Origin: Escherichia phage vB_EcoM_VR26
Direction: 5' to 3' (one strand)
Sequence record: NC_028957.1
Length of the DNA: 64,000 bases
This document shows, piece after piece, positions 1,244-54,439 of the stretch. Each line of letters opens with the position of its first letter. Positions within the stretch are counted from its first letter, which is position 1. The notes beneath the pieces are model-generated. The model made no database searches. It saw only the letters and a list, made by a program, of their open reading frames with translations, and had not been told where the DNA came from. A program made the translations under genes and the position numbers.

Positions 1244-1345
1244 TCATTATAAATTATACCCTCTATACTTTCTTTCTCTGAAAGGAATTAATCGTATCGG
1301 AAGGTCTAGAACCATTATACCACAATTTTATTTGAAGCAAAAAGG

Positions 1346-1946: not shown

Positions 1947-3473
1947 ATGACACAAACTACAGGTGAAAAAGAAGGCGTATTTTACGGTTATTCTCTTTAT
2001 GATTTGAATAAAGAAAAACTAATAACTTTTGATGAATTACTTACGGGTATTCAAGGAGAGCCCGGAGAAAATGGCGATATTGGACCAAAAGGCCCTATTG
2101 GTTTAACAGGTCCTCAAGGACCGAAAGGTGATATCGGGTCAAAAGGTATTAAAGGTGATACAGGTCCTCAAGGTATTCAAGGGCCCGCTGGCCCACAAGG
2201 TCCTCAGGGAGAAAAGGGAGTCCAAGGTTTAGCTGGAGTCCAAGGCATTCAAGGACCAGTCGGCCACCAAGGAGTGAAAGGTGATACCGGCCCTCAAGGT
2301 ATTCAAGGACCGAAAGGTGATACAGGAGCACAAGGCCCACAAGGTGACAAAGGCGAAATGGGTCCGGTGGGTCCGGCTGGTCTAACATGGAAAGGAACAT
2401 GGGACGCTGATGTAGAGTATTCTATAAATGAGGCTGTCGGATATGGTGGTTCTTTATATTTCGCCAAAACAAAAGTTCCTAATGGCGAAATACCAACACC
2501 GACTTCTAACTATTGGGGTGTTTTGGCTACCGAGGGTCCACAAGGTCCACAAGGTCAACAAGGTCTTAAAGGTGATACCGGTCCTCAAGGTATTCAAGGA
2601 CCTGTAGGGCCTGTAGGGCCGCAGGGTATTCAGGGACCAAGAGGACTTCAAGGGTCAGAAGGTGAAATAGGACCGCGGGGTATTCAAGGGCTAAAAGGCG
2701 AAACTGGGCCCGCTGGTCCACAGGGTATTCAAGGGCTAAAAGGCGAGGTGGGTGCTCAGGGTCCTTCTGGTTCTCCTGGACTTACAGGACCAGAAGGACC
2801 TCGTGGGTTAACAGGCGAAGCTGGAGCTCAAGGACCTCGTGGTGCTATAGGTCCTATCGGTTTAACAGGTCCTATCGGTTTAACGGGTCCTCAAGGTATT
2901 CAAGGTCCGAAAGGTGATACAGGTCCTCAAGGCTTACAAGGTCCTCAAGGCTTACGAGGTATTCAAGGAGCTCCTGGAGTAAAAGGAGAAGCGGGTGCAC
3001 AAGGTCCGAAAGGTGATACAGGAGCACAAGGTCCTATTGGTTTAACTGGACCTAAAGGTGATACAGGCCCGAGCCCTTATACTGTTTATAATTATTCTAA
3101 TGTTGCAACTGGTTATGCTGAAATGGTTATGCCTGGTGTGTCATCAAACACAGTATTTAGACTTCGTTCAGTTGGAACTAATATAGAATATAGTGTTCTA
3201 AGTAAAGGCGGAGCTAATAGATATGTAGATTGGCACTTTTCAATTCCAAGTGTTTCCGGCAATACAGTAAGTACTAATAGCGGAACTAATACATTAACTC
3301 CTACAGGTAATTTTACTATTGTGGCGACCGCTTATAATGGACTAAGGGGATTTACAATAACATTATGCGAGTGGGGTTCAAGAGCTATTGTTGATATCAC
3401 TGTTTATCATCATGGGCGTTCGGGAGACACAACCAAAGCTGTGGCTATTCGTATGACTACTACAAAATACTAA
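1947..3473 (+). CDS. collagen-like triple-helix repeat fibre protein with C-terminal globular domain
   Basis: 508 aa; two long uninterrupted Gly-X-Y runs (~nt 2052-2390 and 2534-3072) separated by a W/Y-rich knot (LTWKGTWDADVEYSINEAVGYGGSLYFAK…NYWGVLATEG); GGAGG Shine-Dalgarno 8 nt upstream; not part of the T4 gene set as recalled. Confidence 0.8.
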   Translation: MTQTTGEKEGVFYGYSLYDLNKEKLITFDELLTGIQGEPGENGDIGPKGPIGLTGPQGPKGDIGSKGIKGDTGPQGIQGPAGPQGPQGEKGVQGLAGVQGIQGPVGHQGVKGDTGPQGIQGPKGDTGAQGPQGDKGEMGPVGPAGLTWKGTWDADVEYSINEAVGYGGSLYFAKTKVPNGEIPTPTSNYWGVLATEGPQGPQGQQGLKGDTGPQGIQGPVGPVGPQGIQGPRGLQGSEGEIGPRGIQGLKGETGPAGPQGIQGLKGEVGAQGPSGSPGLTGPEGPRGLTGEAGAQGPRGAIGPIGLTGPIGLTGPQGIQGPKGDTGPQGLQGPQGLRGIQGAPGVKGEAGAQGPKGDTGAQGPIGLTGPKGDTGPSPYTVYNYSNVATGYAEMVMPGVSSNTVFRLRSVGTNIEYSVLSKGGANRYVDWHFSIPSVSGNTVSTNSGTNTLTPTGNFTIVATAYNGLRGFTITLCEWGSRAIVDITVYHHGRSGDTTKAVAIRMTTTKY

Positions 3474-4371: not shown

Positions 4372-5475
4372 TTAATAGACGTAATCGTATATAATACCAG
4401 CTTCCAATGCCGAACGGTGGACGATACGACCGTTACGAGATTCCTGTACATCAACTTCCGGGTAATCACTAAGCATTTTGGCTAATACCGCCAGATGACA
4501 ATAATATGGTGTATCCTCTTTAGTGGCTTTTTTCCAATCTGTACTTTCAGATGTTAATTTCTGAATAGCGTCCATAACCCACCAACCACACCAAATATAC
4601 GCAGTATTACGGACAGGAAGTGGATGTACATAAATTAAAGGACATTCTTCTGGAACAACAGGCTCTGCTTCTGTCACCGTAACAGACTTATTACCTGATT
4701 TAACTGAATTTGTAAAGCCTGTTTGTGATGCAGTAACTTCACAAGTATATGACTTCAAGCCTTCAGTGGATTCCGTTATTGCTCTTGTTGCTTCTGTTGA
4801 GTTGTCGTCCCATTTATATGCAAGAGTAGCGCCAGGAATAGCAGGGGACACAGAAGCTGTCAAATTGAATGGAACATCAACCGTTGCAGTAGACGGGCCT
4901 GAAATCTCAACAGTGAACTCAGGGAATGTATTGTTTTCGACCGTAACAACTACTGCATCAGGATTAATAACTTGGTTGTCATAATCTGCAGCAGAAATGG
5001 TAATTTGACAAGTTAAAGAAACCGGCCCTGCAACAGTAGCAGTACGAGTAATATCTTTAGTAATTTCACCAGTAGACCACAAATATGCTATTGTAGCTCC
5101 ACCAGGTTCACCTGTTACATTAGCCGAAGCGTTATATTCCTCGCCAACTTTAACGGTTGGAGTGGAAGTTGTTAATGTTGCAGTTGCAGACATAGTCTTG
5201 TTATTAACTGTAATAGTTGTTTGAGCCTCTGCCGTTTCAGGCTCTCCTTCTTCCGGCGTTGTGGTGGCAACAACTTTAATTACTTTTGAACCTGCTGGGC
5301 CAGCTGCAATATAATCCATAGTAGCAATAACAGAAGCTTGTGGAACCTCATCAACGGTCCATACAAAAGATTCGGTACCAGCGACAGCGGCTCCAGCCCC
5401 AGTAGCAGTAAAATTAGTTGTTGCACCTATAACCGCTGTAGGTGTTAAAGGGGCAATTGATACAGTATAAGCCAT
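4372..5475 (-). CDS. hoc: highly immunogenic outer capsid protein Hoc
   Basis: 367 aa; Ig-like repeat architecture and C-terminal YVHPLPVRNTAYIWCGWWVMDAIQK…YPEVDVQESRNGRIVHRSALEAGIIY match T4 Hoc as recalled. Confidence 0.9.
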   Translation of the reverse strand: MAYTVSIAPLTPTAVIGATTNFTATGAGAAVAGTESFVWTVDEVPQASVIATMDYIAAGPAGSKVIKVVATTTPEEGEPETAEAQTTITVNNKTMSATATLTTSTPTVKVGEEYNASANVTGEPGGATIAYLWSTGEITKDITRTATVAGPVSLTCQITISAADYDNQVINPDAVVVTVENNTFPEFTVEISGPSTATVDVPFNLTASVSPAIPGATLAYKWDDNSTEATRAITESTEGLKSYTCEVTASQTGFTNSVKSGNKSVTVTEAEPVVPEECPLIYVHPLPVRNTAYIWCGWWVMDAIQKLTSESTDWKKATKEDTPYYCHLAVLAKMLSDYPEVDVQESRNGRIVHRSALEAGIIYDYVY

Positions 5476-5503
5476 AAAACCTCCAAGGGCCGAAGCCCTT
5501 TTG

Positions 5504-6184
5504 TTAATTTAAACGAATAAAAGATGAGTTACGTGTTTCACGAATAAGAATGGAACCGTCACGATTGATATAGTAAATCAAACTAAACAATGTTTGGTGT
5601 GCGCTTGCATGAGTAAAAGAAGTAGGGCGTTCTTTCCAGTCTGGGGTCTCTTTAATCCACTGGTAAATCCACCAAGGGAGAGTACAATATCCAGGAGCTT
5701 TGCCCAGCATAAGCAGATTGGGGCTAAAATTTTTAGGCAGTGTAAATTTAGGAGTTTCAGCTTCGATGATTTGAGCGACAGCTTCTTCAAAGTCTTCGGA
5801 AACAAACGGCACTTCAATTTCAACGAGTTTAACTTCTGATTCAGGGACAACTTCCTGGGTAACTTCGACTACTTCAACGGGTGCTTCTGGAGCATCAAAC
5901 AAAAGAACAGCTTCAGGTTTAGCTGATTCTTCACCTTCAAACTTACTACCTGATAATTCATCATCGGCATTAATAAGGTCGGTGATGCTTAAGCCTTCGT
6001 TATCGTCCGGCATAGGCATGTCAGCAAATGCTTTAAGTCCTGCTTCCAGGTCAATCAACATATTATCGAAAGTTTTTGTTTTCTTAACATCAACACCAAG
6101 CGATGATGCATATTCAGCTAATTTTTCTTTGGCTTCTTTTTTCTCGAGGATACGAATTTCCTCAATATAGTTCTTGTCAATCAT
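5504..6184 (-). CDS. inh: Inh-like protein (inhibitor of prohead protease), capsid internal protein
   Basis: 226 aa, acidic Glu/Pro/Val-rich middle; position between hoc and uvsW as in T4. Confidence 0.65.
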   Translation of the reverse strand: MIDKNYIEEIRILEKKEAKEKLAEYASSLGVDVKKTKTFDNMLIDLEAGLKAFADMPMPDDNEGLSITDLINADDELSGSKFEGEESAKPEAVLLFDAPEAPVEVVEVTQEVVPESEVKLVEIEVPFVSEDFEEAVAQIIEAETPKFTLPKNFSPNLLMLGKAPGYCTLPWWIYQWIKETPDWKERPTSFTHASAHQTLFSLIYYINRDGSILIRETRNSSFIRLN

Positions 6185-6202
6185 GATGAACCTCGGTTAG
6201 TA

Positions 6203-6210
6203 TATAAATA
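6203..6210 (+). promoter_or_regulatory. late promoter motif TATAAATA upstream of uvsW
   Basis: Exact TATAAATA 29 nt upstream of uvsW ATG. Confidence 0.5.
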
Positions 6211-6238
6211 TAGATATATTTATTACCTTGGAATCATC

Positions 6239-7738
6239 ATGGATATCAAAATCAACTTTTTAAATTTTAGTCATGTACATGTTGAATGTGAAGATAGTAT
6301 CTTCTATGAACTCCGTGACTATTTCAGTTTTGAAGCCGAAAACTATCGGTTTAACCCTAAATTCAAAGCGGGAGTTTGGGACGGACGTATCCGTCTCCTG
6401 GATTATAACCGTAAATTACCGTACGGCTTAGTTAACCAGATTAAAAAATTCGCTGACCAGTTTGGTTATTCATTTTGGATTGACCCTCAAATCACCGAGA
6501 AAGAGGAAATCTCCCGTGTGGATTTCGATAAATGGGTCGAGTCAAAAGAAATCTATTCAGGCCATACCAAGATTACTCCCCATTGGTACCAAACAGACGC
6601 CGTATACGATGGTCTGGTCAACAGAAGAAAGATATTGAACTTACCTACGTCTGCAGGTAAAAGCCTCATCCAGGCGCTTCTGGCGCGATATTATCTCGAG
6701 AACTATGAAGGCAAGGTTCTTATCCTTGTACCTACAACTGCGCTCGTTGACCAGATGATTAATGACTTTGTTGATTATAGATTGTTCCCTCGAGAAGCTT
6801 GTCTCGGTATCCGTTCCGGAACTAAACGTGATTCGGATGCAATGATTTATGTGTCTACTTATCAGACGGCAGTAAAACAACCTAAAGAATGGTTTTCACA
6901 GTTCGGTCAGTTTATGAATGATGAATGCCATATGGCTACTGGTAAATCTATTTCGACTGTTATCGAAGGCCTGACTAATTGTATGTTTAAATTTGGTCTC
7001 TCTGGTTCTCTCCGTGACGGCAAAGCAAACCTTATGCAATATATGGGTCTGTTTGGTGATATCTTTAAACCAGTATCCACATCCCAATTAATGGATGAAG
7101 GACAAGTTACTGACCTTAAGATAAATAGTATTTTCCTTCGATATCCTGATGAATTCACCGTTAAAATGAAAGGCAAATCTTATCAAGATGAAATCAAGGT
7201 AATTACAAAAGCTACGCGTAGAAATAAATGGGTAACAAACCTTGCACTCAAGCTTGCTAAAAAAGATGAAAACGTCTTTTTGATGTTTAAGAATATCGAG
7301 CACGGTAAATCGATGTTTGAAATGCTTAAGGAAGCTGGTCATGAGAATGTGTATTATGTTTCCGGGGAAGTTGATACAGAAACACGTAACGCATTAAAGG
7401 TCATGGCAGAAAATGGAAAGGGAATTATCGTTGTAGCTTCATACGGTGTATTCTCGACGGGGATTTCCGTTAAAAACCTCCATCATATTATTTTCGCTCA
7501 TCCGGTCAAGTCAAAGGTAATTGTACTCCAGACAATTGGTCGTGTACTTCGAAAACATGAATCCAAATCGACCGCAAACGTGTGGGACATCGTGGACGAC
7601 ATGGGGGTTAAACCCAAATCAGCAAACGCTAAAAAGAAATATGTTCACTTGAACTTTGCACTGAAACATGCATTAGAGCGTATTCAGCGGTATGCAGACG
7701 AAAAATTCAATTATATCATTAAACAGGTGGAAATATAA
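6239..7738 (+). CDS. uvsW: UvsW DNA/RNA helicase (SF2)
   Basis: 499 aa; MDIKINFLNFSHVHVECEDS…; Walker A LPTSAGKS, DECH box (MNDECHMA); near-colinear with T4 UvsW as recalled. Confidence 0.92.
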   Translation: MDIKINFLNFSHVHVECEDSIFYELRDYFSFEAENYRFNPKFKAGVWDGRIRLLDYNRKLPYGLVNQIKKFADQFGYSFWIDPQITEKEEISRVDFDKWVESKEIYSGHTKITPHWYQTDAVYDGLVNRRKILNLPTSAGKSLIQALLARYYLENYEGKVLILVPTTALVDQMINDFVDYRLFPREACLGIRSGTKRDSDAMIYVSTYQTAVKQPKEWFSQFGQFMNDECHMATGKSISTVIEGLTNCMFKFGLSGSLRDGKANLMQYMGLFGDIFKPVSTSQLMDEGQVTDLKINSIFLRYPDEFTVKMKGKSYQDEIKVITKATRRNKWVTNLALKLAKKDENVFLMFKNIEHGKSMFEMLKEAGHENVYYVSGEVDTETRNALKVMAENGKGIIVVASYGVFSTGISVKNLHHIIFAHPVKSKVIVLQTIGRVLRKHESKSTANVWDIVDDMGVKPKSANAKKKYVHLNFALKHALERIQRYADEKFNYIIKQVEI

Positions 7739-7965
7739 TGAAGTCATTTGAAGAAATTATGTATGAAGCGGCAATTGAAAGCTTCATGTCTAAGATAGGT
7801 TCTTGTCAGACCATGGACGGTCTGAAGGAGCTGGAAGGTTATTATAAAAAGCGCAGTAAAGAAGCTGAATTGAAAGATTCCGATGATATCAGTGTTCGCG
7901 ATGCTCTAGCAGGTAAACGTGCCGAGCTTGAAGATATGGACGACGAAGAAGACGAAGATTTCTAA
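7738..7965 (+). CDS. UvsW.1-like small acidic protein
   Basis: 75 aa, ATG overlaps uvsW stop (ATAATG); acidic C-terminus DMDDEEDEDF. Confidence 0.6.
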   Translation: MKSFEEIMYEAAIESFMSKIGSCQTMDGLKELEGYYKKRSKEAELKDSDDISVRDALAGKRAELEDMDDEEDEDF

Positions 7966-8022
7966 ATAAAAAGGCCCCAACCAAAAAGGAAGGGGCAAAA
8001 CCAAAATGGTTAACAACACTAG

Positions 8023-8190
8023 CTAAATTAAAAGTTGGGTCTCGTTCAGTTGCTCTTGAGTATTTTCCGTAACTGGCAAACTCTGAACATAATTATAACA
8101 GGCGCCCGGATGCACCGGACCTTGGTCTGTATCCACAACCAATGCAGAATCGATTGGAGTTTTACAGACAACACAAATCTTATCTGACAT
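8023..8190 (-). CDS. small Cys-containing protein (55 aa), possible zinc ribbon
   Basis: Manually translated minus-strand ORF MSDKICVVCKTPIDSALVVDTDQGPVHPGACYNY…; below the 60-aa cutoff of the ORF track; CxxC…C pattern. Confidence 0.35.
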   Translation of the reverse strand: MSDKICVVCKTPIDSALVVDTDQGPVHPGACYNYVQSLPVTENTQEQLNETQLLI

Positions 8191-8329
8191 GATTGTCTCC
8201 TCAGTTAAACTTACATATCTATTTAGTGCTCTTCATTGCTGTGGCTTTTGCTTTCAATTCATTAACAATTTTGGTTATTCGGTTTGCAGAGATAACCATC
8301 TCGTCAAGAATCTTACTAATATTTTTCAT

Positions 8330-8563
8330 TTAACTTTCCTTAAAGTATCTCATACCAGTATCTATCCCCATATTGTGAGAATAGAATGCATCATCGATGT
8401 ATCCCGCAAATTTACCTTTAACATAGATAACATCTTCACCACAAGGGTGGTCAGCGCAGATACGAATATCTGCACGATTCAATTTCCATTCCTTCATCAT
8501 ATACTTAATTTCTTCTTCGAACTCTTCGTCTTGGTTAAACGCATCGTCGATAGAATATCGCAT
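8330..8563 (-). CDS. hypothetical protein (uvsY.-1/-2-like by position)
   Basis: 77-aa ORF immediately downstream of uvsY with ATG overlapping uvsY stop. Confidence 0.55.
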   Translation of the reverse strand: MRYSIDDAFNQDEEFEEEIKYMMKEWKLNRADIRICADHPCGEDVIYVKGKFAGYIDDAFYSHNMGIDTGMRYFKES

Positions 8564-8997
8564 TACTTGCCTGCCTCGAATTGTCTTATTTCTAACATAT
8601 GTTTAAGCGCGAAACTTCTCGACTTAACACCATCTAATGCAGCGCTACAGAAGTCCTGGAGCAGTGCCCAATATTGAATTGAAGTATCAATCTTAAGCAC
8701 GCTTGAATCTGCGGCCATAACTGTTTTCAATTCTGACTTCTCGTACACATCCATGCATACTTCTTCCCCTGGGTCACCCCTTCCCGTATAATGGTCTAGT
8801 CGTTTTTTCAGTGCAGTTTTCTTCTGAATCTCAAGACGCATTATTTCTTTCTTGCAGTTGGTATACAATCTCAACCATTTGCTATGCAACAAAACGTTGT
8901 TTTGTGTTTCATATTGAATTTGTGTACCATCAATTTTTAAATCTGCATCCAACTCATCCTGAAATACTTCCAACTTATATTCAATCTCTGTTTTCAT
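8563..8997 (-). CDS. uvsY: UvsY recombination mediator protein
   Basis: Matches T4 UvsY as recalled (…LHSKWL…KKEIMRLEIQKK…RGDPGEE…LKHMLEIRQFEAGK). Start set at internal ATG (MKTEIEY…) because the upstream ATG at 9025-9027 lies inside the -10 element of the promoter. Confidence 0.8.
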   Translation of the reverse strand: MKTEIEYKLEVFQDELDADLKIDGTQIQYETQNNVLLHSKWLRLYTNCKKEIMRLEIQKKTALKKRLDHYTGRGDPGEEVCMDVYEKSELKTVMAADSSVLKIDTSIQYWALLQDFCSAALDGVKSRSFALKHMLEIRQFEAGK

Positions 8998-9025
8998 AAT
9001 GTATCCAATGTAAGGGTCTAGAACC

Positions 9026-9050
9026 ATTATACAGCCATAAAATTAAAGCA
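9026..9050 (-). promoter_or_regulatory. MotA-dependent middle-promoter-like element (MotA box TGCTTTA + 12 nt + TATAAT) upstream of uvsY
   Basis: Minus strand reads ttaaTGCTTTAattttatggctgTATAATgg; matches T4 middle promoter consensus (MotA box at about -30, -10 TATAAT). Confidence 0.45.
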
Positions 9051-9440
9051 TTAACCGTTTTGACTTAACTGAATCCTGATTTGTTCGAGGGTGTCAGGGT
9101 CATCAACAATGCTGAACTGAACCGTTACGATGATGGAGTTATCATCATACATAGGGACAACCGCAACCTGCAGATTGCTTATCCTTGGTTCAAAGTTCCG
9201 CACAGCGGAGACGATGTTGCGTTTAATGGTATCTGTGATTAATGGTGTGATATTCTCAAAAAGCTGATTACTTATATCACATCCAAATTCAGGCATAAAA
9301 GGCCTTGACCCTTTTCTTGTGGTGATTATTCCCAGAAGACTGTTCTTAACAGACCTTGCACCAGTTACTTTAGCAACGTCTTTATCCCAACTTGTAGATA
9401 AGTCGGGAGACACATCGCTATACATTTTGTTTATATTCAT
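9051..9440 (-). CDS. 25: baseplate wedge protein gp25 (gpW/lysozyme-like fold)
   Basis: 129 aa; MNINKMYSDVSPD…SLLGIITTRKGSRPFMPEFGCD… matches T4 gp25 as recalled. Confidence 0.9.
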   Translation of the reverse strand: MNINKMYSDVSPDLSTSWDKDVAKVTGARSVKNSLLGIITTRKGSRPFMPEFGCDISNQLFENITPLITDTIKRNIVSAVRNFEPRISNLQVAVVPMYDDNSIIVTVQFSIVDDPDTLEQIRIQLSQNG

Positions 9441-10064
9441 TTACATAAACTTAAAGAATTCTTTAAGCCCCTTAATTACATGGACAGAATGCGCTCCACA
9501 CTCACAAGAGATAGGAATAGCCATTTGGACCTGTGGCTTGAGAAGTTCTTCCGTTAGTGCATTGATATCATCGAGGGTAATTGCATTGTACAGGTCCTCG
9601 ATTTCGGCCTCATTTAAGTCATCAACAACGATGCGCTCGCCGCCTTCCGTGATAATATATTCAATGCAACAAGCAATCATTTTTCCTTTATCACCGTCTT
9701 CAAACAGTCCAGGATAACGGAATTTAATTTTAAACGACCCGAAATCACGAATAACTTCAGACTCGTCCACGATGCTCGCGCGGCTTATTGTCACAGGAAT
9801 GTCTTGTTCCTTTCCGCACTCACATACCCATGTATGCTCGACGTTAACAGCTCCGAGACTATTTGCCCAGAGATTAATAAGAAGCAACTCGGCTTCCTGT
9901 TTGTTTAACCCTTTAGCATCAGTGCATTTATTAAGCAGTTCAATTATTGCAGGTTCCATACGCTTTTCTAATTTTGCCTGAAGCAAATCTTTATATTCGC
10001 GCAAGGTAAAAGCCCTACAATTTATAGTTTTATTTTTAATTTGGACAATAAATTCATAAGTCAT
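9441..10064 (-). CDS. 26: baseplate hub subunit gp26
   Basis: Start chosen at ATG preceded by AAGGAG SD (MTYEFIV…); 207 aa, close to the T4 gp26 length recalled (~208 aa); synteny 25-26-51. Confidence 0.8.
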   Translation of the reverse strand: MTYEFIVQIKNKTINCRAFTLREYKDLLQAKLEKRMEPAIIELLNKCTDAKGLNKQEAELLLINLWANSLGAVNVEHTWVCECGKEQDIPVTISRASIVDESEVIRDFGSFKIKFRYPGLFEDGDKGKMIACCIEYIITEGGERIVVDDLNEAEIEDLYNAITLDDINALTEELLKPQVQMAIPISCECGAHSVHVIKGLKEFFKFM

Positions 10065-10081
10065 AATTTGCTCCTTTACTG

Positions 10082-10093
10082 TATTTATAAATA
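10082..10093. promoter_or_regulatory. divergent late promoters (TATAAATA readable on both strands) between gene 26 and gene 51
   Basis: Sequence tatttataaata contains TATAAATA on + (10086-10093) and on - (10082-10089). Confidence 0.55.
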
Positions 10094-10117
10094 TCAATAA
10101 AGATAAAAGGGGATTCT

Positions 10118-10870
10118 ATGGCCAATATCGTAAGATGTGAAATGCCAGACGGAGTTCATCGTTTCAAACCGTTTACAGTCGCTGATTACCGTGATTTACT
10201 GCTTGTGCGAAACGACATGAACAACAAACCCGTCGAAGAACAAAAACAATTATTAGACGAACTGTTGGAAGATTATTTTGGAGAATATCCGAAAGCATGG
10301 AGACCTTACATATTCCTGAAGGTATTCACTTCCTCTATCGGTAAGACAAAAGTCCCGGTAGCGTTCGAATGTCAAAAATGTAAAAAGACAAAGCAGACTT
10401 TGTTTAACATGAGTCAAGGCCCATTGATAAATCCAACGATGGAAACTGCCGGGATAAAAATACAATTTAAGTTCCCTGAAGTGGAATATAAAGATAAGTC
10501 GGAGCTTGTTCTAAACACCATCCAGACTGTCGAAGACTCGGAACAAAAGTACAATTGGGAAGACCTCCCTGAAGAAACGAAGATGCAAGTTATCGATGCA
10601 ATTGATATAGAAAGTCTCGAAGAGCTCCTTAAGAAAATGCACTCGATTTATCTTCCATTTACATATGGTTGCTGCGAAAAACACAAAACCGAATATACAG
10701 ACTTGATTGATGTCTTTAAGCTTATCCTTAACCCGGATGAAGTCTTTGTATTTTATCAAATTAACCACTTGCTGGTAAAGAACCAATATACGCTGGATAG
10801 CATCATGCACATGATTCCTATTGAACGAGGTATTGCTTTATCACTAGTTGAGAAGGACTTGAAAAAATGA
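10118..10870 (+). CDS. 51: baseplate hub assembly protein gp51
   Basis: 250 aa, position and size match T4 gp51 (~249 aa as recalled); ATG overlaps next gene (ATGA). Confidence 0.8.
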
Positions 10871-12036
10871 CAGTTAAATCTATGCAGCGTGAAGGCTTTC
10901 CTAATATCAGCATCCGCCTTTATGAAGATTATGATGCGTGGCTTGAACACCGTTTTGTAGAACTAGCCGCCACCTTTACAACGTTAACCATGCGTGATTC
11001 CCTTTATGGAAGAAACGAGGGGTTGTTGCAATTCTACGATACGAAAAACCTGCATACAAAAATGAATGGTGAACAGGTTATTCAGATTTCTGTTAAGAAT
11101 GCCAACTCTGACCGAACCCAATCCAGAATATATGGAAGCAAACACTTTGCAGTTTCTGTGGATTCAAAGGGTGATAACATAATTACAATTCAACTGGCAC
11201 CTATTCACGAAATTGAAGACCTGAAATTTAGTCGTATGTTTTACCCGAGTGTACAAGAAACATTAGTCGAAATGACCGGGGTAATTTATCAAGACAGGCC
11301 CTTACTTGCTCCTCCTATAAACGGAATCAACGTTTATGCTCCTAATGTTCCATGGTGTGATTCGATGAACCAATATATGGAATTCATAAGGGAAGTGGGT
11401 CTTGCAGTTGAGTCTGATAAATTTGTATTTGTGTGGGAAGATATTGATGGCATCAGTATCCAGGATTATGAGTGGTTAACTGCACAAGAGCCAATTAACT
11501 TTGTCGTAGGGGAACCTCGATTGATTGGTCAGTTTGTGCAAAACCTCGATGCTCCGTTAGCCTTCGATTTTGAATGGTTAACAAAGGCAAACCAACACAC
11601 AAGAAAACCATATGAAAACGCAACCGTGTATGCGCATTCATTCCTTGACAAGAACGCAACCAGAATAACTTTTGGGGAAGGTCAAAACAGTATTCTGGTA
11701 TCTCGTTCCGGGGGCTATTCGGATTACACGTACCGAAATGGTTTCGAGGAAGCACAACGATTAATAACCATGTCTCAGTATGACGGTTACGCACATTGCA
11801 AAACGTACGGGAACTTTGAATTAACCCCGGGTGATAAGATAAATTTCTTTGACCCTAAGAACCAATTCAAATATGATTTTTACGTAGACGAAGTTATTCA
11901 TGAAGTGAGTAACAATACATCAATTACAAACCTCTATATGTTTACCAATGGTAAGCCTATCGAAGTTGAAGAACCACCGAAGGTTAAAAATGAACTTAAA
12001 ACTGATTCTGCCGACGAAGAAAATACAGCTGGGTGA
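10867..12036 (+). CDS. 27: baseplate hub subunit gp27
   Basis: 389 aa; synteny and size as T4 gp27 (~391 aa as recalled). Confidence 0.88.
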
Positions 12037-12508
12037 TAAAGAGATTCATGTACCCAAGCTTGGGCTTAAGCATCACAATCTGATTAAAAACGAGGCCAAC
12101 CCTTACGCTGCATTAAGAAAGGTTATGCAATCGATATTCCCTAATCTTACAGCAGCCGAATCCGACTTTGTATCCTTACATCTTCTGGAATTCAATGGTA
12201 AGCTAAAAGACAAACGCGAGATTAACGGATTTACATATAAGCTGGATGATGTTTATATCTGTCAACGTCTTGAATTCTCTTATCAAGGAAAGACATTTAA
12301 ATTCCGCTCGAATAAACCGTATGAAGAATTTGGGCCAGTTGACAATCTTCTGGAGACTCTTTATCTCGGGGAAGATGTTCCAGACTTTCTGGATATGCCT
12401 GCTTTTGTTGCTAAGTGGGCAGACGATATCACAAGCACATTAGCAATCCCGGGCCCGAATGGTCCTGTTAAGGGGTTACTGAAAATAATGGAACTCCTAA
12501 ATGAATAA
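11990..12508 (+). CDS. 28: baseplate hub distal subunit gp28
   Basis: Start set at [11 protein letters not shown]… (SD-like aagg 9 nt upstream); overlaps gp27 3' end; ~172 aa versus ~177 aa recalled for T4. Confidence 0.75.
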
Positions 12509-14246
12509 GAACTCCGAACAAACGAGCTTCAGACGCGGTGGACCGAATAAAAAGCTTATCGAAGAATTAGCACCACAAAGGAGGGCGGAAGCCCTCTCTG
12601 CTGAACAGAATGATGAACTATCGAATCTGAATACGACTCTTACAAATACTCAGGCTGCGACCGAACTTGTATCGGAAGCTATTGAGGATAAGGGTAATCA
12701 GATTATCGAGAATATCCAAACCAATAATGGAGTCCTCCAGGATATCAGTGCTGGGGTCGAACTGACGGCTGAAGCCACCGAGAAGACTCAACAAGGGATT
12801 AAAAACCTCACGGATATTCTCTCGGATAAGCTCGACAAACTCAGTGCAATGATAAGCGGTAAAATAGGCGTCACGTCTCCTGTGGCTGGTTCTGAAAGCC
12901 TTAAACCCGTTGAGGATGCATTACCAGAGCCTGAAGAGAATAAGCCTACAGCGAGCGTTCCAGCGCTTATACCACCCGAAGAACAAAAGCCAGATGCAGA
13001 CTTCATACCGGAACCGGAGCAGCCAAAGAATGATGCAGAAGGTAAAGAGACTAACACTTGGTCTCTCGGCGATAAGCTTGACACTCTTTCGAAGATAACC
13101 GAAAAAGGATTTAAGGCATCGGTTTCTGTAGCCGACCGAATCTCAGGGATGTTGTTCAAATACACAATAACTGCGGCAGCTGAAGCAGCTAAATTAATAG
13201 GCGGATTATTGTTGTTGGTATTCGGCATCGATGCAATACGAGTTTACTTCCAGTATTTCATGAAGCAATTCGAAAAAGGATGGGTCGAATTTAATGATAA
13301 GTTCAAAGAATGGGGGCCATTACTCGAAGGATTAATGACTTGGGCGAAGAATGCTGAAGCTATGTTTAGTGAAAGAAATTGGCTTGGCCTGGCAGAAGCT
13401 ATTATCCGTGGAATGGTTAACTTAACGAAGAATATGGCTCAACTTCTTATGCTTGGTATTTCAAAATTAATCTCGGCTATCTTAAGTAAAATCCCCGGGA
13501 TGGGTGACCTAGCAGATAATGTGGAAGCCTCTGCGTTGATGTCTTATCAGCAAAACACGGGCGCAACCCTTGATGATGAAGACCAAACAAAGATAGCTAA
13601 GTATCATGATAAACGTTCGGCCGAAGCAATGAAAACTGCGGAGAAGATGAATAAGAAGTATAAGGATAAACCTGAACTGATTAATCAAGCCGAAAAATAT
13701 GGCAACCTTACCAAGGAACAAGCTGACCAGCTTCGTGCAGGTGGTATTGACACAAGCTTCAGAGACCTTCCAGAAGAAGAACGTCTGGACTATTTCAAGA
13801 AGCGTGATAAAACCCAAGCCGATATTATTCGTTTAACCCAGACTGCAGATAACTTAATGAAGCCAGATGCAACCGATAAAAAGAATGCTGAAGCCTCGTA
13901 TAAAGCAATCCAGGAACAGTTGGCTGACCCGGTTATGTCAAAAGGTGGAGCTCCGAAAGACCTTAATATGCGTGCTCTCCTGGAAAAACTCGATAAGTCT
14001 CTTGAGAAGTTCAAAGACGAACCGAAAGTTAAACCACCTGATGTTAAGACTTCTCCGGACGCACAACAAGCCGCGAAGGTCGACGAAGGCATGAAGGCCA
14101 AAGAAAATAAATACAAGGATGCACCGGCTCAGGCACAAATTAACACGGTCAATAATATTCAGAAGACTTCAAGGACGCAATACAATATGCCTCCTCAAAG
14201 TTCAACCCCTGCCCCTGGCATGAGACAGGCCACGAGAATTAACTAA
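12501..14246 (+). CDS. 29: baseplate hub protein gp29 / tail tube length determinant (tape-measure-like)
   Basis: 581 aa, coiled-coil/Lys-Glu-rich; synteny 28-29-48-54. Confidence 0.85.
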   Translation: MNKNSEQTSFRRGGPNKKLIEELAPQRRAEALSAEQNDELSNLNTTLTNTQAATELVSEAIEDKGNQIIENIQTNNGVLQDISAGVELTAEATEKTQQGIKNLTDILSDKLDKLSAMISGKIGVTSPVAGSESLKPVEDALPEPEENKPTASVPALIPPEEQKPDADFIPEPEQPKNDAEGKETNTWSLGDKLDTLSKITEKGFKASVSVADRISGMLFKYTITAAAEAAKLIGGLLLLVFGIDAIRVYFQYFMKQFEKGWVEFNDKFKEWGPLLEGLMTWAKNAEAMFSERNWLGLAEAIIRGMVNLTKNMAQLLMLGISKLISAILSKIPGMGDLADNVEASALMSYQQNTGATLDDEDQTKIAKYHDKRSAEAMKTAEKMNKKYKDKPELINQAEKYGNLTKEQADQLRAGGIDTSFRDLPEEERLDYFKKRDKTQADIIRLTQTADNLMKPDATDKKNAEASYKAIQEQLADPVMSKGGAPKDLNMRALLEKLDKSLEKFKDEPKVKPPDVKTSPDAQQAAKVDEGMKAKENKYKDAPAQAQINTVNNIQKTSRTQYNMPPQSSTPAPGMRQATRIN

Positions 14247-27493: not shown

Positions 27494-27532
27494 AGGACCT
27501 AGACCCCATTATAACATAAAATTTTTAAAGCG

Positions 27533-37204: not shown

Positions 37205-38862
<1,658 letters not shown>

Positions 38863-41517: not shown

Positions 41518-41541
41518 ATTATACTTCAGAGTGATTGAAGC
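41518..41541 (-). promoter_or_regulatory. possible middle promoter for gene 32 (GCTTCA + 12 nt + TATAAT) inside the 3' end of gene 59
   Basis: Minus strand aacGCTTCAatcactctgaagTATAAT. Confidence 0.3.
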
Positions 41542-42194
41542 GTTATTTGACAGTTTTTAACCGTCTCAATGAAAAGCTTACGAGCTTCAAGAGCATCTAT
41601 ATTTAAGATTTTCTTATAAGCATTTAGTTTGGTTGAATACTTGTCCCAAACCAAATCGTTAGTCTGTTCATCATGTTTATTTATTATATGCAAAAATGAG
41701 TCAAGCAAACAAAACGTTTCAAATGAAATAACATTCGATTGGAGAAGTTTGAAAATATAACTTGTGTTCACTTTAGTATTATACTCGAAAATCTCTTGAA
41801 GCGATTTGACTTCGACTTTCTTACTGAAGTAATAGATGTTCTTTATATCATCTTCGTATACTTGTTTAATTCTTTTAAGTCTGCCGATGTATTCCCTATA
41901 AAATATCAGAGCATCGGCATCACTTATATCACCTATCCATGCATCCTGGTTCGCGACCAGGTTTGACATGAATATTAACGTTAATTCTTTGAGAGTGTAC
42001 TTATCGCTAAGCTTTTCGAAAAAATACTTGTCACGACGTTTTTGATAAGCACTATCGGAGATTCGCATGGTCCAGTTATATTTGATAATATCATAACGAC
42101 CCGAAAAATGCTGTTTGATGGATAAGTACAGTTGATATACTGATTTACCATTTATGTATCGGTTGTTATTTGGAGGCATGCGAATCGTAATCAT
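41526..42194 (-). CDS. 59: helicase loader gp59
   Basis: 222 aa; …YINGKSVYQLYLSIKQHFSGRYDIIKYNWTMRISDSAYQKRRDKYFF…ANQDAWIGDISDADAL… matches T4 gp59 as recalled. Confidence 0.9.
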   Translation of the reverse strand: MITIRMPPNNNRYINGKSVYQLYLSIKQHFSGRYDIIKYNWTMRISDSAYQKRRDKYFFEKLSDKYTLKELTLIFMSNLVANQDAWIGDISDADALIFYREYIGRLKRIKQVYEDDIKNIYYFSKKVEVKSLQEIFEYNTKVNTSYIFKLLQSNVISFETFCLLDSFLHIINKHDEQTNDLVWDKYSTKLNAYKKILNIDALEARKLFIETVKNCQITLQSL

Positions 42195-42742: not shown

Positions 42743-43687
42743 TTAATAAAATTCAGCAATATTTGCAGTTAGTTTAGACAGACCAGACTTAACAAAGTAA
42801 GGATAAACTTTACTTTTGGCTGGGATAGTGTAGTTATTATATCGTTCTAAGATTGAAGCGGATATTTCTGTTGGGATAAAGTCCATATCAATCAACAATT
42901 GGTTTTCACAGAATCTATTATATTGCTCTTCTGTTAAAAGCGTTTTCAGGACGTCATGGTCGTAATAGTTGAGCGCAATTTGTTCAAGCTCAGCAGCACG
43001 GGTCGGTGGAGTACGTTCCCCTTCTTCGTGAGTGTAATAAAAATCACCACGAACTTTGATGCTTGACACGTTATCTTTTTTGTCGCCTTTAACAACTTTT
43101 GTCACGCAATCCATAAGGGCATCGCCAGATTTTGTTTTTACATATTTTTTCTGCATCGGGGACCATTGTTTTACCCCAGGGAATTTATGCAACTGGGTAA
43201 AGTCGCCATCCGAAGAAACAATCATAACCGGATGTCCGAGACCGGTGAGCAACTTCGTTAAGACTGCAATATGGTCGTCTGCCTCAACTTTATCCATATT
43301 CATCACGATGTACGGCATGTATTTTTCCATTTCATCAATGATGATGTGCATGGCAGCATGTAGACCTTCCCAATCGAATTGAGACTCTTCACGAGCTTTC
43401 GCACGGTTTTTCTTATAATAATAAGATTTCGTTCGACGCCAATAACCATTCTTCGAGTTATCAACACAAATAATTGGAATCGTATAACCGAGCTTCTTGA
43501 ACTGCACAATATTTTTTCTGATGGAGTTCAGAACCAGGTGCCGGGTCATTGCGGTTGTTACCTTTGGATAACCAGCGTCTTTGCCGAATTCCTGGAAGGC
43601 TGCAGCCATGATGAGCTGACTAAAATCGAGTAACTGAAAACCATCTTTTTGACGGTCTTCTTCAGGGAGTAAGAAATCTAAATTCAT
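42743..43687 (-). CDS. rnh: RNase H / 5'-3' exonuclease (FEN-1 family)
   Basis: 314 aa; …DNSKNGYWRR…YYKKNRAKAREESQFDWEG…EADDHIAVL…VSSDGDFTQLHK…KKDNVSSIKVRGDF… matches T4 RNase H as recalled. Confidence 0.9.
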   Translation of the reverse strand: MNLDFLLPEEDRQKDGFQLLDFSQLIMAAAFQEFGKDAGYPKVTTAMTRHLVLNSIRKNIVQFKKLGYTIPIICVDNSKNGYWRRTKSYYYKKNRAKAREESQFDWEGLHAAMHIIIDEMEKYMPYIVMNMDKVEADDHIAVLTKLLTGLGHPVMIVSSDGDFTQLHKFPGVKQWSPMQKKYVKTKSGDALMDCVTKVVKGDKKDNVSSIKVRGDFYYTHEEGERTPPTRAAELEQIALNYYDHDVLKTLLTEEQYNRFCENQLLIDMDFIPTEISASILERYNNYTIPAKSKVYPYFVKSGLSKLTANIAEFY

Positions 43688-43783: not shown

Positions 43784-46700
43784 ATGGCCGATATTTTAAA
43801 ACCAGCATTCAGAGCAACATCCGGTCTCGATGCTGCTGGTGAGAAAGTCATTAATGTCGCGAAAGCTGATTACTCAGTTTTGTCAGACGGCGTTAACGTA
43901 GATTTCTTTATAGAAGAAAACACAGTTCAACAATATGATGCAACGCGTGGATACAAAAAGAACTTCGCAGTTATTAATGATAACCGTATTTGGGTTGCTC
44001 AACGTGATATTGATGCTCCTGCTGGAGCATTTACCCCTCAGTATTGGTTAGCAACTCGTACTGACCCTAAATGGGAAACTGTTGCATCTCCGACTCGTCA
44101 GCTTAATTCGGGTGAATTTATCGCAGTTGACTCTGCTGCAAGCTTTACCACATTTACATTGCCTACAAACCCGGTCGATGGCGATACCATCGTTATTAAA
44201 GATATCGGCGGCAATGTTGGTTACAACGAAATTAAAGTGCAGTCAAGCAACGTACCAGGCGGCGGTAACCAAAAGATTGTTCGTTTTGGTAATCAGTATT
44301 CAGAAGTTTTAATTACCAAACCGTTCTCTTATAATATGCTTATCTTCTCGAATCGCTTATGGCAATTCTGGGAAGCTGGCAACGAAGAACGTGGCATCAG
44401 AGTAGAACCATCAACTGGTCGTTTCCATGCGCAAGCCGGCGACTTTATTATGCGTCGTTATACAACCGGTGCACCGATTACTTTCATTCTTCCTAAGTAT
44501 GCGAACCAGGGCGATATTGTCAAATCTGTTGATATCGATGGCCTGGGGCCAACATTCCACCTGATGGTTGAAACCTTTGACTCCAGTTCCAGTCTTGGTA
44601 AAGCTGGACAGCATCAAATGGAATTCCGCACCACGGGCGATGGCTTCTTTGTTTATAATGCCGCCGAAAAACTCTGGTATGTTTGGGACGGTGATTTTAA
44701 AACTCGTCTTCGCGTTATTCGCGATAACGTTAAACTTTTACCGAACGAAAGTGTCATTGTATTTGGTGAAGATAACTCAACTCCAGCGACGATTAATATC
44801 GATTTGCCAACGGATGTTTTGCAAGGTGACATTGTTAAAATTGCACTGAACTATCTCCGCAAATCACAGACTGTTAATATAAGAGCTGCTGCTGGTGATA
44901 AGATTGCATCTGACATTAAATTGTTGCAATTTCCTAAACGCTCCGAGTATCCACCAGATTCAACTTGGGTATTGGTTGATTCATTGACCTTTAATGGTAA
45001 CATCAGTTATACTCCAGTTATTGAATTGTCTTATGCCGAAGATAAATTGTCTGGAACAAGTTATTGGGTTGTTGCTCAAAACGTTCCGACTGTTGAGCGA
45101 GTTGACTCATTAAATGATTCCACGCGTGCTCGTCTTGGTGTTATTGCTCTGGCAAACCAGACTCAGGCAAACGTTGACCATGAAAATAACCCAGAAAAAG
45201 AACTCGCAATTACTCCTCAGACTTTGGCTAACCGTGTTGCTAAAGAGAACCAACGAGGCATTGCCAGAATCGCAACGACTGCCCAAGTAAATCAGAACAG
45301 TGATTTTGCATTTGTTGATGATGTAATTATTTCTCCGAAAAAACTCAATGAACGTACGGCAACAGAAACGAGACGTGGGCTCGCAGAACTCGCCACACAG
45401 CAAGAAACTGATGCAGGTGTAGATGATACCACAATTATCACTCCAAAGAAACTGCAAGCGCGTCAGGGCTCAGAATCGCTGTCCGGTATCGTGACTTACG
45501 TCCCGACCACTGGTGCAACTCCAGCTACTTCGCGTGAATTAAATGGTACAAACGTTTATAATAAAAATACCACTAATCTGGTAATTTCTCCGAAAGCTCT
45601 TGACCAATACAAAGCTACTTACACTCAGCAAGGCGCAGTTATTCTGGCCGTTGAAAGTGAAGTAATTGCAGGTACATCGCAATCTGGCTGGCCAAACGCT
45701 GTTGTTACTCCGGAGATGTTGCATCGTAAAACAGCTCTTGATTCCCGTATCGGTTTAATCGAAATTGCTACTCAGACAGAAACAAATGCAGGAACCGATT
45801 ATACCAGAGCCGTGACTCCTAAAACGTTAAATGACCGTAAAGCATCAGAAACGTTAACCGGCATAGCCGAGATTGCTACGCAATCAGAATTTGATACTGG
45901 AACTGATGATACTCGTATCTCAACTCCATTAAAAGTTAAAACTAGATTTAATAATACTGCTCGTACTTCTGTTAATGCATTAAGTGGTTTAGTAGAAACA
46001 GGGACGCTCTGGGACCATTATAACCTGAATATTCTTGAAGCAAATGAGACACAACGTGGTACGGCAAGATTAGCAACTCAGGGTGAAGTTAATACCGGTA
46101 CTGACGATAAAACAATCGTTACTCCGCTTAAATTGATGTCGAAAAAAGCCACTGAAAATGCCGAAGGTATTGTTCGCATTGCGACAAACGCAGAAGCGAC
46201 TGCCGGTACATCGAAAGTTCTGGCCATCAGTCCGTCTGCGCTGAAATATATTGCACAAACGGAAACAACCTGGGAAGCATCTGAAACACTGCGTGGATTT
46301 GTTCGTTTATCTTCTGGCACAGCTACTTCGGCCGCAACTACAACGACTGGTGCAGGATTTACATATGAGAATGGTGTATATACCCCGGACCCAAGTAAAC
46401 TGGTTAACTACGTAAAATCTGGCTATGCAGTTTCGCCTTACGAATTAAACCGCGTATTGCAAAACTTCTTACCGATAAATGCGATGGCTGTTAATGCCGA
46501 AAAACTTGATAGCCTCGATTCAACCCAGTTTATTCGTCGTGATATTGCTCAGACTGTTGAAGGTGTGTTAACTCTCACCAAACAGACAAATTTATCCGCT
46601 CCGGTTGTATCGACGAGCACTGCAGTGTTTACTGATGTAACGGCTGGCACTTCGACGTTCGGAACTGTGAATGTTGTTAATGGAACCAACAAGTGGAAAA

Positions 46701-47797
46701 TCACTGCTCCTTCCACCGGAACGACAATGACTATTGGCGATACGACTAACGTATTGACATTAAACACTGCCTCGGGCAATGTTGCTGTATTGAACAACCT
46801 TAGTGCCGGAAACGATGTTCAAGCCAAAAATAATTACGTTCTAAACGGTCGTACTATTGCAACCACGACGGGTGAAGCTTCTGGTGCAACTCTGGCCCTG
46901 GGTGATAACTCGCAGAATTTAGTGCTCAAAACTCTTGATGCTGGTAATATCATAGCAAATGGTGGCGGTGCATTTAAAGTCCTGACCGAGAAAAACGCTG
47001 TTGAGATTGTTGATAGAAACTTTGTTAACCAAGCGGGCGATACAATGTCTGGTATGCTCCGTGTGAATGCTCCGGTCCGTGTATTCGGTACGAAACCAAG
47101 TCTTATCGCACAAGCCCCAACTGCGGAAACTGTTGGCTTCTGGTCTGTTGATATTAATGATGAACCGACTTACAGTCAGTTCCCCGGTTATTGGACAATG
47201 ATTTTAAAACGTCAAATAAACATTGATACCGTTCAAACTAAACCGGCCGGTATGTCCGATGAAGTTTGGAATAGTTCTGGTTGGTTAACAGAAAACGGCA
47301 AGAATGGTAAATTACCCGGTGGACAAGAATTGGGTCCCGATGGACAACCGATTACACCACAGCCTCCGGTTGTACCAATTCATTATCGTAAACCAGATGG
47401 AACTTTAGGTGACCCAGTTAGTACACCAGAGGCTCCTATACGTGGTACATGGTTTGACTATTCAGTTCGTGACAAACAAATTAAATATCCTGGTACATTG
47501 ACTCAGTTTGGTAATACGCTGGATTCATGCTATCAAGATTGGGTTTGCTATCCTACTGGATTAAACGGTGGTACTATTCGTTATACTCGCACATGGCAGA
47601 AAAATAAATCAGCCTGGACGACTTTCGCAATGGTTTACACCGCGGATAACCCTCCGTCTGCAGAGGATGTTGGTGCATTACCGGCGGACAACACAACAAT
47701 GGGGAACTTGACCATTCTTGATTGGTTACGTATCGGTAACGTGCGTATCATCCCAGACCCGACCACTAAATCCGTTAAGTTTGAATGGGTTGAATAA
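43784..47797 (+). CDS. 34: long tail fibre proximal subunit gp34
   Basis: 1337 aa; repetitive fibre protein; synteny 34-35-36-37. Confidence 0.9.
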   Translation: MADILKPAFRATSGLDAAGEKVINVAKADYSVLSDGVNVDFFIEENTVQQYDATRGYKKNFAVINDNRIWVAQRDIDAPAGAFTPQYWLATRTDPKWETVASPTRQLNSGEFIAVDSAASFTTFTLPTNPVDGDTIVIKDIGGNVGYNEIKVQSSNVPGGGNQKIVRFGNQYSEVLITKPFSYNMLIFSNRLWQFWEAGNEERGIRVEPSTGRFHAQAGDFIMRRYTTGAPITFILPKYANQGDIVKSVDIDGLGPTFHLMVETFDSSSSLGKAGQHQMEFRTTGDGFFVYNAAEKLWYVWDGDFKTRLRVIRDNVKLLPNESVIVFGEDNSTPATINIDLPTDVLQGDIVKIALNYLRKSQTVNIRAAAGDKIASDIKLLQFPKRSEYPPDSTWVLVDSLTFNGNISYTPVIELSYAEDKLSGTSYWVVAQNVPTVERVDSLNDSTRARLGVIALANQTQANVDHENNPEKELAITPQTLANRVAKENQRGIARIATTAQVNQNSDFAFVDDVIISPKKLNERTATETRRGLAELATQQETDAGVDDTTIITPKKLQARQGSESLSGIVTYVPTTGATPATSRELNGTNVYNKNTTNLVISPKALDQYKATYTQQGAVILAVESEVIAGTSQSGWPNAVVTPEMLHRKTALDSRIGLIEIATQTETNAGTDYTRAVTPKTLNDRKASETLTGIAEIATQSEFDTGTDDTRISTPLKVKTRFNNTARTSVNALSGLVETGTLWDHYNLNILEANETQRGTARLATQGEVNTGTDDKTIVTPLKLMSKKATENAEGIVRIATNAEATAGTSKVLAISPSALKYIAQTETTWEASETLRGFVRLSSGTATSAATTTTGAGFTYENGVYTPDPSKLVNYVKSGYAVSPYELNRVLQNFLPINAMAVNAEKLDSLDSTQFIRRDIAQTVEGVLTLTKQTNLSAPVVSTSTAVFTDVTAGTSTFGTVNVVNGTNKWKITAPSTGTTMTIGDTTNVLTLNTASGNVAVLNNLSAGNDVQAKNNYVLNGRTIATTTGEASGATLALGDNSQNLVLKTLDAGNIIANGGGAFKVLTEKNAVEIVDRNFVNQAGDTMSGMLRVNAPVRVFGTKPSLIAQAPTAETVGFWSVDINDEPTYSQFPGYWTMILKRQINIDTVQTKPAGMSDEVWNSSGWLTENGKNGKLPGGQELGPDGQPITPQPPVVPIHYRKPDGTLGDPVSTPEAPIRGTWFDYSVRDKQIKYPGTLTQFGNTLDSCYQDWVCYPTGLNGGTIRYTRTWQKNKSAWTTFAMVYTADNPPSAEDVGALPADNTTMGNLTILDWLRIGNVRIIPDPTTKSVKFEWVE

Positions 47798-53785: not shown

Positions 53786-54439
53786 ATGGAACCAAAAGTA
53801 GGAATCTCAATACCCGACCTACTTTTTGGACTTCTTGATAGAATTTTTAAAGATAATGCGACCGGGAAAGTTGTCTTTTCCCGGGTACTAGTTATTGTTC
53901 TATTATTTTTAATGGCGGTAATCTGGTATAAAGGTGATGCAATTTTAGATGCGTATAGGGATGCTTCATATGCCTCGTACACGGAAATGATAAGGCAAGA
54001 CCAAGATAACAGATTTAAAATTGCAGCTATCGAGCAAATCCAGATAGTCCATTCATCAAGCGGAGCAGACTTTACAGCGATATATTCCTTCAGACCTACC
54101 AACCTTAACTACTTTGTGGATATGGTTGGCTACGAAGGGAGATTGCCTGATACAGTTGACGAGAAAAATTTGGGTGGGTTTCCAATAGATAAGACTTCAG
54201 CGGAATATTTGGCGGGGGTTAATGGTAATTATTTTGAATCCAGTAATGAATTTGTATTCTTACCAACAAAGAAAAAAAGCAGCTTCGCATATATGTTCAG
54301 CTGCCCATTCTTTAATCTAGAGAACGTTTACGCAGGTACAGTTTCTTTGTATTGGTACGTTCAGAAACCAGACCTTGGTTTTGATAGGCTTTCTGCTATG
54401 TGTGGACAAGCAGGTCGTACGCTCGGGCGTACACGTTAG
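53786..54439 (+). CDS. t: holin T
   Basis: 217 aa; …DLLFGLLDRIFKDNATGKVVFSRVLVIVLLFLMAVIWYKGD… single TM near N-terminus and large periplasmic domain; matches T4 T as recalled. Confidence 0.9.
   Translation: MEPKVGISIPDLLFGLLDRIFKDNATGKVVFSRVLVIVLLFLMAVIWYKGDAILDAYRDASYASYTEMIRQDQDNRFKIAAIEQIQIVHSSSGADFTAIYSFRPTNLNYFVDMVGYEGRLPDTVDEKNLGGFPIDKTSAEYLAGVNGNYFESSNEFVFLPTKKKSSFAYMFSCPFFNLENVYAGTVSLYWYVQKPDLGFDRLSAMCGQAGRTLGRTR

Follow-up and report, generated by a model that had tools for sequence, protein, structure and literature searches.

A very probable MotA/AsiA-dependent uvsY promoter in Escherichia phage vB_EcoM_VR26 and its possible role as an oriF-type origin

The minimal T4 origins oriF and oriG, of approximately 100 bp each, combine a middle-mode promoter with an A+T-rich unwinding element (DUE), in which the origin transcript forms a persistent R-loop (Kreuzer and Brister, PMC3016281). 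The promoter of oriF is that of uvsY, and Escherichia phage vB_EcoM_VR26 (sequence record NC_028957.1) carries, directly upstream of its own uvsY gene, a site that a sequence-only reading had taken for a MotA-dependent middle promoter and, on account of the same arrangement, for a predicted origin. This locus raises two questions: whether the site is a middle promoter, and whether it would act as an origin as well. Both have been approached by computational analysis of a 64,000-nucleotide stretch of VR26 DNA (hereafter, the window), the features of which are collected in Table 1.

The window has a GC content of 40.6%, and the genome is here 7 points richer in GC than that of T4. The 1.4 kb around the uvsY promoter show 96-98% identity to the SP18 / VR7 / TH41 group of T4-like coliphages (the SP18 record is classified as Gaprivervirus), and the order of the genes is T4-like: uvsW / uvsY.-2 / uvsY.-1 / uvsY / 25 / 26 / 51 / 27. 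At around 8561, where uvsY stops and uvsY.-1 starts, the match to VR7, VR20, VR25 and a number of further close relatives breaks off precisely where uvsY ends (query position 1131-1140 of 1401), and in TH41, SP18 and others it runs on past this point. Judged by these comparisons, the uvsY / uvsY.-1 junction is a mosaic boundary. A recombination junction near the promoter itself, considered in view of 95-99% matches to Klebsiella phages, was discarded, the matching segment being merely a 40-nt conserved piece within gene 26.

Table 1. Features of the VR26 window referred to in the text (positions counted from the first nucleotide of the window)
Feature	Position	Strand	Remarks
RNA ligase 2 gene (rnlB homologue)	212-1216
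Late promoter TATAAATA	6203-6210		29 nt upstream of uvsW
uvsW helicase	6239-7738	+	in T4, unwinds origin R-loops
uvsY.-2-like ORF	8190-8023	-
uvsY.-1	8563-8330	-
uvsY CDS, driven by the promoter	8997-8563	-	144 aa; Pfam UvsY, E 7e-50
Would-be DUE (+1..+50)	9019-8970	-	32% GC; overlaps first 9 uvsY codons
Shine-Dalgarno-like GGA	9006-9004	-	within leader
5' leader	9019-8998	-	22 nt
Predicted transcription start A	9019	-	7 nt past -10; homology to T4
-10 element TATAAT	9031-9026	-	followed by GG (G-rich discriminator)
Spacer, box to -10	9043-9032	-	12 nt; sequence not conserved
MotA box core TGCTTTA	9050-9044	-	centred near -30; consensus PMC2988021
Gene 25 stop TAA	9053-9051	-	doubles as A/T-rich 5' flank of MotA box
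Gene 25	9440-9051	-	Pfam GPW_gp25
Gene 26	ending at 9441	-
Gene 51	10118-10870	+
Gene 27		+
Gene 59, helicase loader	41526-42194	-
rnh, T4-type RNase H	42743-43687	-
Gene 34	43784-47797	+
P34i/oriG orthologue, TGCTTCA-N13-TATAAT	46017-46042	-	antisense in gene 34
asiA, co-activator and anti-sigma factor	54436-54711	-	91 aa; 53% identical to T4 AsiA
motA, middle-promoter activator	56444-57052	-	202 aa; 34% identical to T4 MotA
GCTT-N12/13-TATAAT examples	58838, 42917, 42836, 41778, 41683, 41518, 36607, 27508, 26102, 20363, 7841, 6774, 1314	-

Read directly, the minus strand from 9053 to 9026 is TAA TGCTTTA ATTTTATGGCTG TATAAT. The sequence-only reading had reported TGCTTTA, 12 nt and TATAAT on this strand, with exact coordinates, and had called the arrangement near-consensus, a term that understates the likeness: the consensus for T4 middle promoters is (a/t)(a/t)(a/t)TGCTTtA, 12 +/- 1 bp, TAtaaT (PMC2988021), and the match to it is complete, spacer and -10 included. 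For the exact pattern TGCTTTA-N11-13-TATAAT, 0.05 occurrences are expected in the window and one is found; for the looser pattern TGCTTNA-N11-13-TANNNT, 2.68 are expected and 13 are found, all 13 lying on the minus strand, which is that of early/middle transcription. At 17-nt spacing, the sigma-70 -35 position is occupied by TTAATG (3/6 matches), the site was not called in a sigma-70 consensus scan, and the TGn of an extended -10 is absent (ctgTATAAT).

The window encodes both motA and asiA, and the MotA protein contains its two Pfam domains (MotA_activ and MotCF) above the cut-off. Since this MotA is just 34% identical to that of T4, the specificity for the box was tested without presupposing it. 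Thus, in an unbiased k-mer test, the top 4-mer at -24..-9 of minus-strand TATAAT sites was GCTT, found at 17 of 46 sites against 2.6 expected (p 2e-10), and in 14 of these 17 it stands at offset -19/-18, that is, 12-13 nt upstream of TATAAT; the same test on plus-strand TATAAT sites gave no GCTT signal. The uvsY site agrees with this consensus of VR26's own.

Window-wide, 15 GCTT-N12/13-TATAAT sites were catalogued, all of them on the minus strand. Taking into account that approximately half of them carry CGCTT instead of TGCTT, the VR26 box consensus looks like (T/C)GCTT(C/T)A, slightly unlike that of T4. One of these sites is the promoter of the RNA ligase 2 gene, in which 19 nt (1303-1321, minus strand; GTATAATGGTTCTAGACC) are identical to positions 9015-9033 (minus strand) of the uvsY promoter, a segment that reaches from the -10 across the GG discriminator into the first transcribed bases. 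Starts of the related form TATAATGG(G)TC(T/C) are also found at 27508, at 46017 and in the uvsY promoters of relatives, and this recurrent TATAATGG-type start may be a preferred initial transcribed sequence of strong middle promoters. As a promoter, the uvsY site is a routine one, which helps to define the middle regulon of VR26.

Comparison with T4 places the site more precisely. After gene 25, T4 reads taa TGCTTCA cgttaaaacgtgg TATAAT, the box standing directly behind the gene 25 stop, as in VR26. The start of T4 PuvsY has been mapped to 115371 (Table 1 of PMC2988021), 7 nt past its -10; the bases at this start are gaatctA in T4 and ggttctA in the window, the homologous base being the A at 9019, where we infer that the VR26 transcript begins. 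On the T4 PuvsY transcript, the position 115321 at which oriF is marked in T4 records corresponds to +51. The uvsY site of VR26 is, by its place and by its letters, the orthologue of T4 PuvsY. The two share their position between the gene 25 stop and uvsY, the strand and the neighbourhood, including the nearby uvsW; a MotA box, 12-13 nt and TATAAT without a -35; similar start bases (tctA); and an equal predicted stability over the first 50 transcribed bp. They differ in the box (TGCTTTA in VR26, TGCTTCA in T4), in the spacer (12 nt in VR26, 13 nt in T4), in the TGn extended -10, which T4 PuvsY has and VR26 lacks, and in the leader, which is 22 nt long in VR26 and 44 nt in T4. The A/C-rich T4 leader (ccaataacaaccaataacaattg...) has no counterpart in VR26, and no homology of the leader to the T4 oriF DUE was found, VR26 and T4 being unalignable past about +12. 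Moreover, origin activity has been demonstrated for T4 oriF, whereas the VR26 site is a candidate origin.

The conservation of the site was followed in 26 uvsY loci from IMG/VR, with protein identities of 53-100%. In all loci that keep gene 25 upstream (every one but L023), a box containing GCT sits right behind the gene 25 stop, 12-14 nt ahead of TATAAT. In an alignment of 14 loci (53-100% UvsY identity), TATAATG and the GCT core are invariant, and the spacer and the leader variable, so that just the two elements are conserved. Across relatives, the box ranges from the perfect TGCTTTA, in VR26 and L027, to degenerate forms such as TGCTGTT and CGCTTTC; together with the invariant -10, this degeneracy is consistent with the tolerance of MotA for deviations in the box and with the fact that a good -10 is strictly required (PMC2988021). 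The distance from the -10 to the ATG falls into two length classes, one of 28-31 nt (VR26, with 28 nt, and L005-L017, 64-85% identity) and another of 40-50 nt (T4 types and L024-L028). In T4 itself (L001, 2835-2857), the uvsY leader/oriF DUE region contains a tandem duplication of CCAATAACAA, present as a single copy in the T4-type contigs L018-L022, which have 40 nt between the -10 and the ATG where T4 has 50 nt; DUE length therefore varies even among the closest relatives of T4.

The location of the promoter bears on the start codon of uvsY. In annotations of the SP18 type (SP18 uvsY being annotated at L002 3174-3638), UvsY has 154 aa and its ATG lies inside TATAATG, which corresponds to 9027 in the window. 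If this start were right, the whole ORF could not be expressed from this promoter, a point that would count against the middle-promoter reading. However, the 10-codon extension (8998-9027) is blocked by stop codons in T4, L011, L016 and L024, and the loci in which it is open show unrelated sequences there, whereas the ATG at 8997 aligns with the UvsY of all relatives and its GGA-type ribosome site is conserved. The long ORF, which would start inside the -10 element, was thus rejected, and the true start of uvsY is most likely at 8997, giving a protein of 144 aa and being compatible with a transcript that begins at 9019. In this way, the promoter analysis corrects a likely mis-annotation of the uvsY start in close relatives.

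How such a promoter would work can be proposed by analogy with T4. Early in infection, AsiA would remodel region 4 of sigma-70, with the result that the missing -35 would cease to matter; MotA would bind TGCTTTA at about -30 and region 2 of sigma-70 would bind TATAAT. The transcript would then run from approximately 9019 leftward through uvsY, uvsY.-1 and, probably, uvsY.-2.

Two other accounts of the site have to be weighed against this one. It could be an ordinary sigma-70 promoter of the early type, independent of MotA and AsiA and relying on its strong -10 and G-rich discriminator; the perfect TATAAT followed by GG would suit this view, and some T4 TGn/-10 middle promoters stay active without region 4 contacts (PMC2988021). 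But the VR26 site lacks TGn, keeps just three of the six -35 bases and escapes the sigma-70 scan, whereas T4 early promoters typically have a -35, TGn and UP elements (PMC2988021), and the lineage-wide invariance of the GCT at -30 would be left unexplained without a factor reading it, all of which makes this account very improbable. It could also be a functionless chance match, given that at least one exact match appeared in 4 of 100 shuffles of the window. Against this, the match lies at the exact orthologous spot of a mapped T4 promoter, and both elements are invariant across 14 diverged loci in which the neighbouring bases vary, so that the comparative sequence data effectively refute chance and leave it a negligible probability. 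The point that does weigh against the middle-promoter reading is the divergence of MotA from its T4 homologue, the dependence on MotA and its exact specificity being what we infer from the k-mer signal. Even so, we consider it very probable that, in this T4 relative of the Gaprivervirus type, the site is the MotA/AsiA-dependent middle promoter of uvsY, orthologous to T4 PuvsY. The proposal that a MotA-dependent middle promoter stands immediately upstream of uvsY thus has good support from the consensus, T4 orthology, the invariant box and -10, the presence of motA and asiA, and the phage-wide GCTT/-10 signal.

Whether the uvsY promoter, together with approximately 50-100 bp downstream of it, is an oriF-type origin as well is a different matter, and a possibility that we place somewhat below even. 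In T4, RNase H probably makes the primer from the RNA of the R-loop, the helicase loader gp59 is needed for origin replication, and UvsW, acting late, removes R-loops (PMC3016281). If VR26 behaved in the same way, the nascent transcript would stay annealed as an R-loop on easily unwound DNA and would be trimmed by RNase H; the trimmed RNA would prime a leftward leading strand, and gp59 would load the gp41/61 primosome on the displaced strand. Later, the late expression of UvsW would clear the R-loops, shutting the origin off. It has to be noted that, in T4, plasmid replication is supported by only 2 of about 58 middle promoters (PMC3016281).

The sequence-only reading had proposed looking for an AT-rich unwinding element just downstream of the transcription start. 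Over +1..+50, VR26 and T4 oriF are nearly equal in GC (0.32 and 0.30), purine content (0.60 and 0.64), nearest-neighbour duplex dG (-58.3 and -58.4 kcal/mol) and RNA:DNA hybrid stability (-59.9 and -60.1 kcal/mol), and the weakest 25-mer lies at +20 in VR26 and at +22 in T4 oriF; this equality holds despite the 7-point higher genomic GC of VR26, which would, at first sight, speak for the origin. The difference between hybrid and duplex, -1.5 kcal/mol per 50 nt in VR26 and -1.7 in T4 oriF, is unremarkable against background. Likewise, among the 100-mers of 5000-13000, 8956-9055 comes fifth in order of increasing stability (z 2.1) and belongs to the least stable 2% of the window, T4 oriF being the seventh least stable in its 5 kb (z 1.8). 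On the face of it, the +1..+50 stretch has the stability of the T4 DUE and is part of a local minimum of helical stability.

The value of such measures was assessed on T4 itself, by placing all 58 mapped middle-promoter starts (PMC2988021) on the T4 sequence; the coordinates are validated by the fact that 56 of these starts have a -10 at the offset expected or close to it. Ten downstream measures, among them GC, duplex stability, RNA:DNA hybrid stability, purine content, weakest 25-mer and RNA folding, were compared, and none separates oriF and oriG from the 55 other mapped T4 middle promoters (Mann-Whitney p 0.12-0.91). By 50-bp stability among the 58 promoters, oriF ranks 39 and oriG ranks 9, being among the most stable, and oriA, linked to P56, is in the middle of the distribution on the downstream measures. 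In the window, the MotA-type sites at 38101, 43719 and 1314 have duplex stability scores at least equal to that of the uvsY site. Stability, hybrid, purine, weakest-25-mer and RNA-folding measures were consequently dropped as predictors of origins. The proposed check thus looks positive at this site, but since the T4 control shows no separation, its outcome carries almost no weight; an AT-rich element cannot call an origin, and it is therefore positional orthology that carries the origin claim. In practice, then, finding AT-rich DNA downstream of a MotA promoter should not be read as evidence of an origin.

In T4 records, oriA lies 50 nt downstream of the P56 start (L039, 16763 and 16813), the same offset that oriF has from PuvsY. 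Taking into account that both offsets are equal to 50 nt, the deposited coordinates of oriA and oriF may be nominal (start minus 50) and not mapped transition points.

In favour of the origin stand the positional orthology of the site with the T4 oriF promoter and the fact that the known trans-acting set is encoded in full, that is, RNase H, gp59, gp32 and a UvsW with a late promoter (gp52 is also encoded in the window). To these can be added that the promoter of the other T4 R-loop origin, P34i/oriG, is conserved too and survives changes of gp34 in L033 and L034, which suggests that this type of origin persists beyond T4. Against it, the leader of 22 nt, compared with 44 nt in T4, would let a ribosome engage the transcript sooner, and untranslated RNA favours bacterial R-loops (PMC3977913); the T4 leader sequence, moreover, has no equivalent in VR26. 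This last point is not disqualifying, because in T4 the DUE does not depend on its sequence and heterologous unwinding elements can take its place (PMC3016281). Searches of the region gave no known RNA families at E <= 1 in 7500-10500 (Rfam), and just weak two-copy matches in 7700-10300 when iterons or a direct-repeat array, as proposed for T4 oriE, were looked for. Literature searches for replication or origin mapping in T4 relatives found none, and those for promoter lists of JS98, VR7 or SP18 gave nothing usable. Of the statement that the same arrangement predicts an origin, the arrangement of the promoter stands, and the origin becomes a plausible consequence of orthology instead of a prediction.

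If the uvsY site were an origin, it would resemble ColE1 RNA II and E. coli oriK (constitutive stable DNA replication), in which a transcript becomes a persistent RNA-DNA hybrid and then provides a 3'-OH primer, a comparison made for T4 in PMC3016281. There is, however, no sequence or structural homology between these systems and the VR26 site, and ColE1 requires a folded RNA II, host RNase H and Pol I, whereas T4 uses a phage RNase H and its own replisome. The importance of such an origin would be modest, origin mapping being known from T4 itself only. As a diverged orthologue with the same promoter and a shorter, unrelated leader, VR26 would offer a natural way of testing whether the promoter and its position are enough.

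The second T4 origin promoter of this class has its own counterpart in the window. On the antisense strand of gene 34, the sequence catTTGCTTCAagaatattcaggtTATAATggtcccagag (TTGCTTCA-N13-TATAAT) is almost the same as that of T4 P34i/oriG, a promoter of the MotA type, the transcript of which primes T4 replication, and the A+T-rich run located approximately 55-85 nt downstream (about 45930-45963) is kept, as in T4. Unlike the uvsY promoter, P34i/oriG is a separate locus that lies antisense inside a coding region and expresses no known protein. Over its boxes, gene 34 codes for the peptide WDHY(N/T)LNILEANE, and among the window, L032 (a VR25 contig) and T4 there are zero synonymous changes in the codons of the boxes, whereas third positions do differ in the codons on either side. 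L033 and L034, where the peptide has become WNHYTLDISKANE, still read TTGCTTTA-N13-TATAAT on the antisense strand; in L035-L038 both boxes have been lost. Over the four informative lineages of this synonymous-site test, the pattern suggests selection on a DNA element. It may tentatively be proposed, though we regard it as rather doubtful, that several Tevenvirinae genera maintain both PuvsY/oriF and P34i/oriG as origins, with the boxes fixed and the DUE free in sequence and in length (leaders of 22-44 nt).

Some further traits of the region can be mentioned. GC skew was considered as evidence of an origin and rejected: its sign flips at around 8000 and 10000 track the small block of minus-strand genes, and it provides no independent evidence because the flips merely follow gene orientation. 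In the short gap between the divergent genes 26 and 51, two late-promoter motifs TATAAATA on opposite strands overlap at 10082-10093, forming the palindrome TATTTATAAATA, and the least stable 100 bp of the neighbourhood (10020-10119) are found at this palindrome. Finally, an ORF of 508 aa on the plus strand (1947-3473), consisting mostly of collagen-like G-X-Y repeats, sits in a GC-rich patch (50% GC, 2001-3000), at the place where T4 has hoc and inh.
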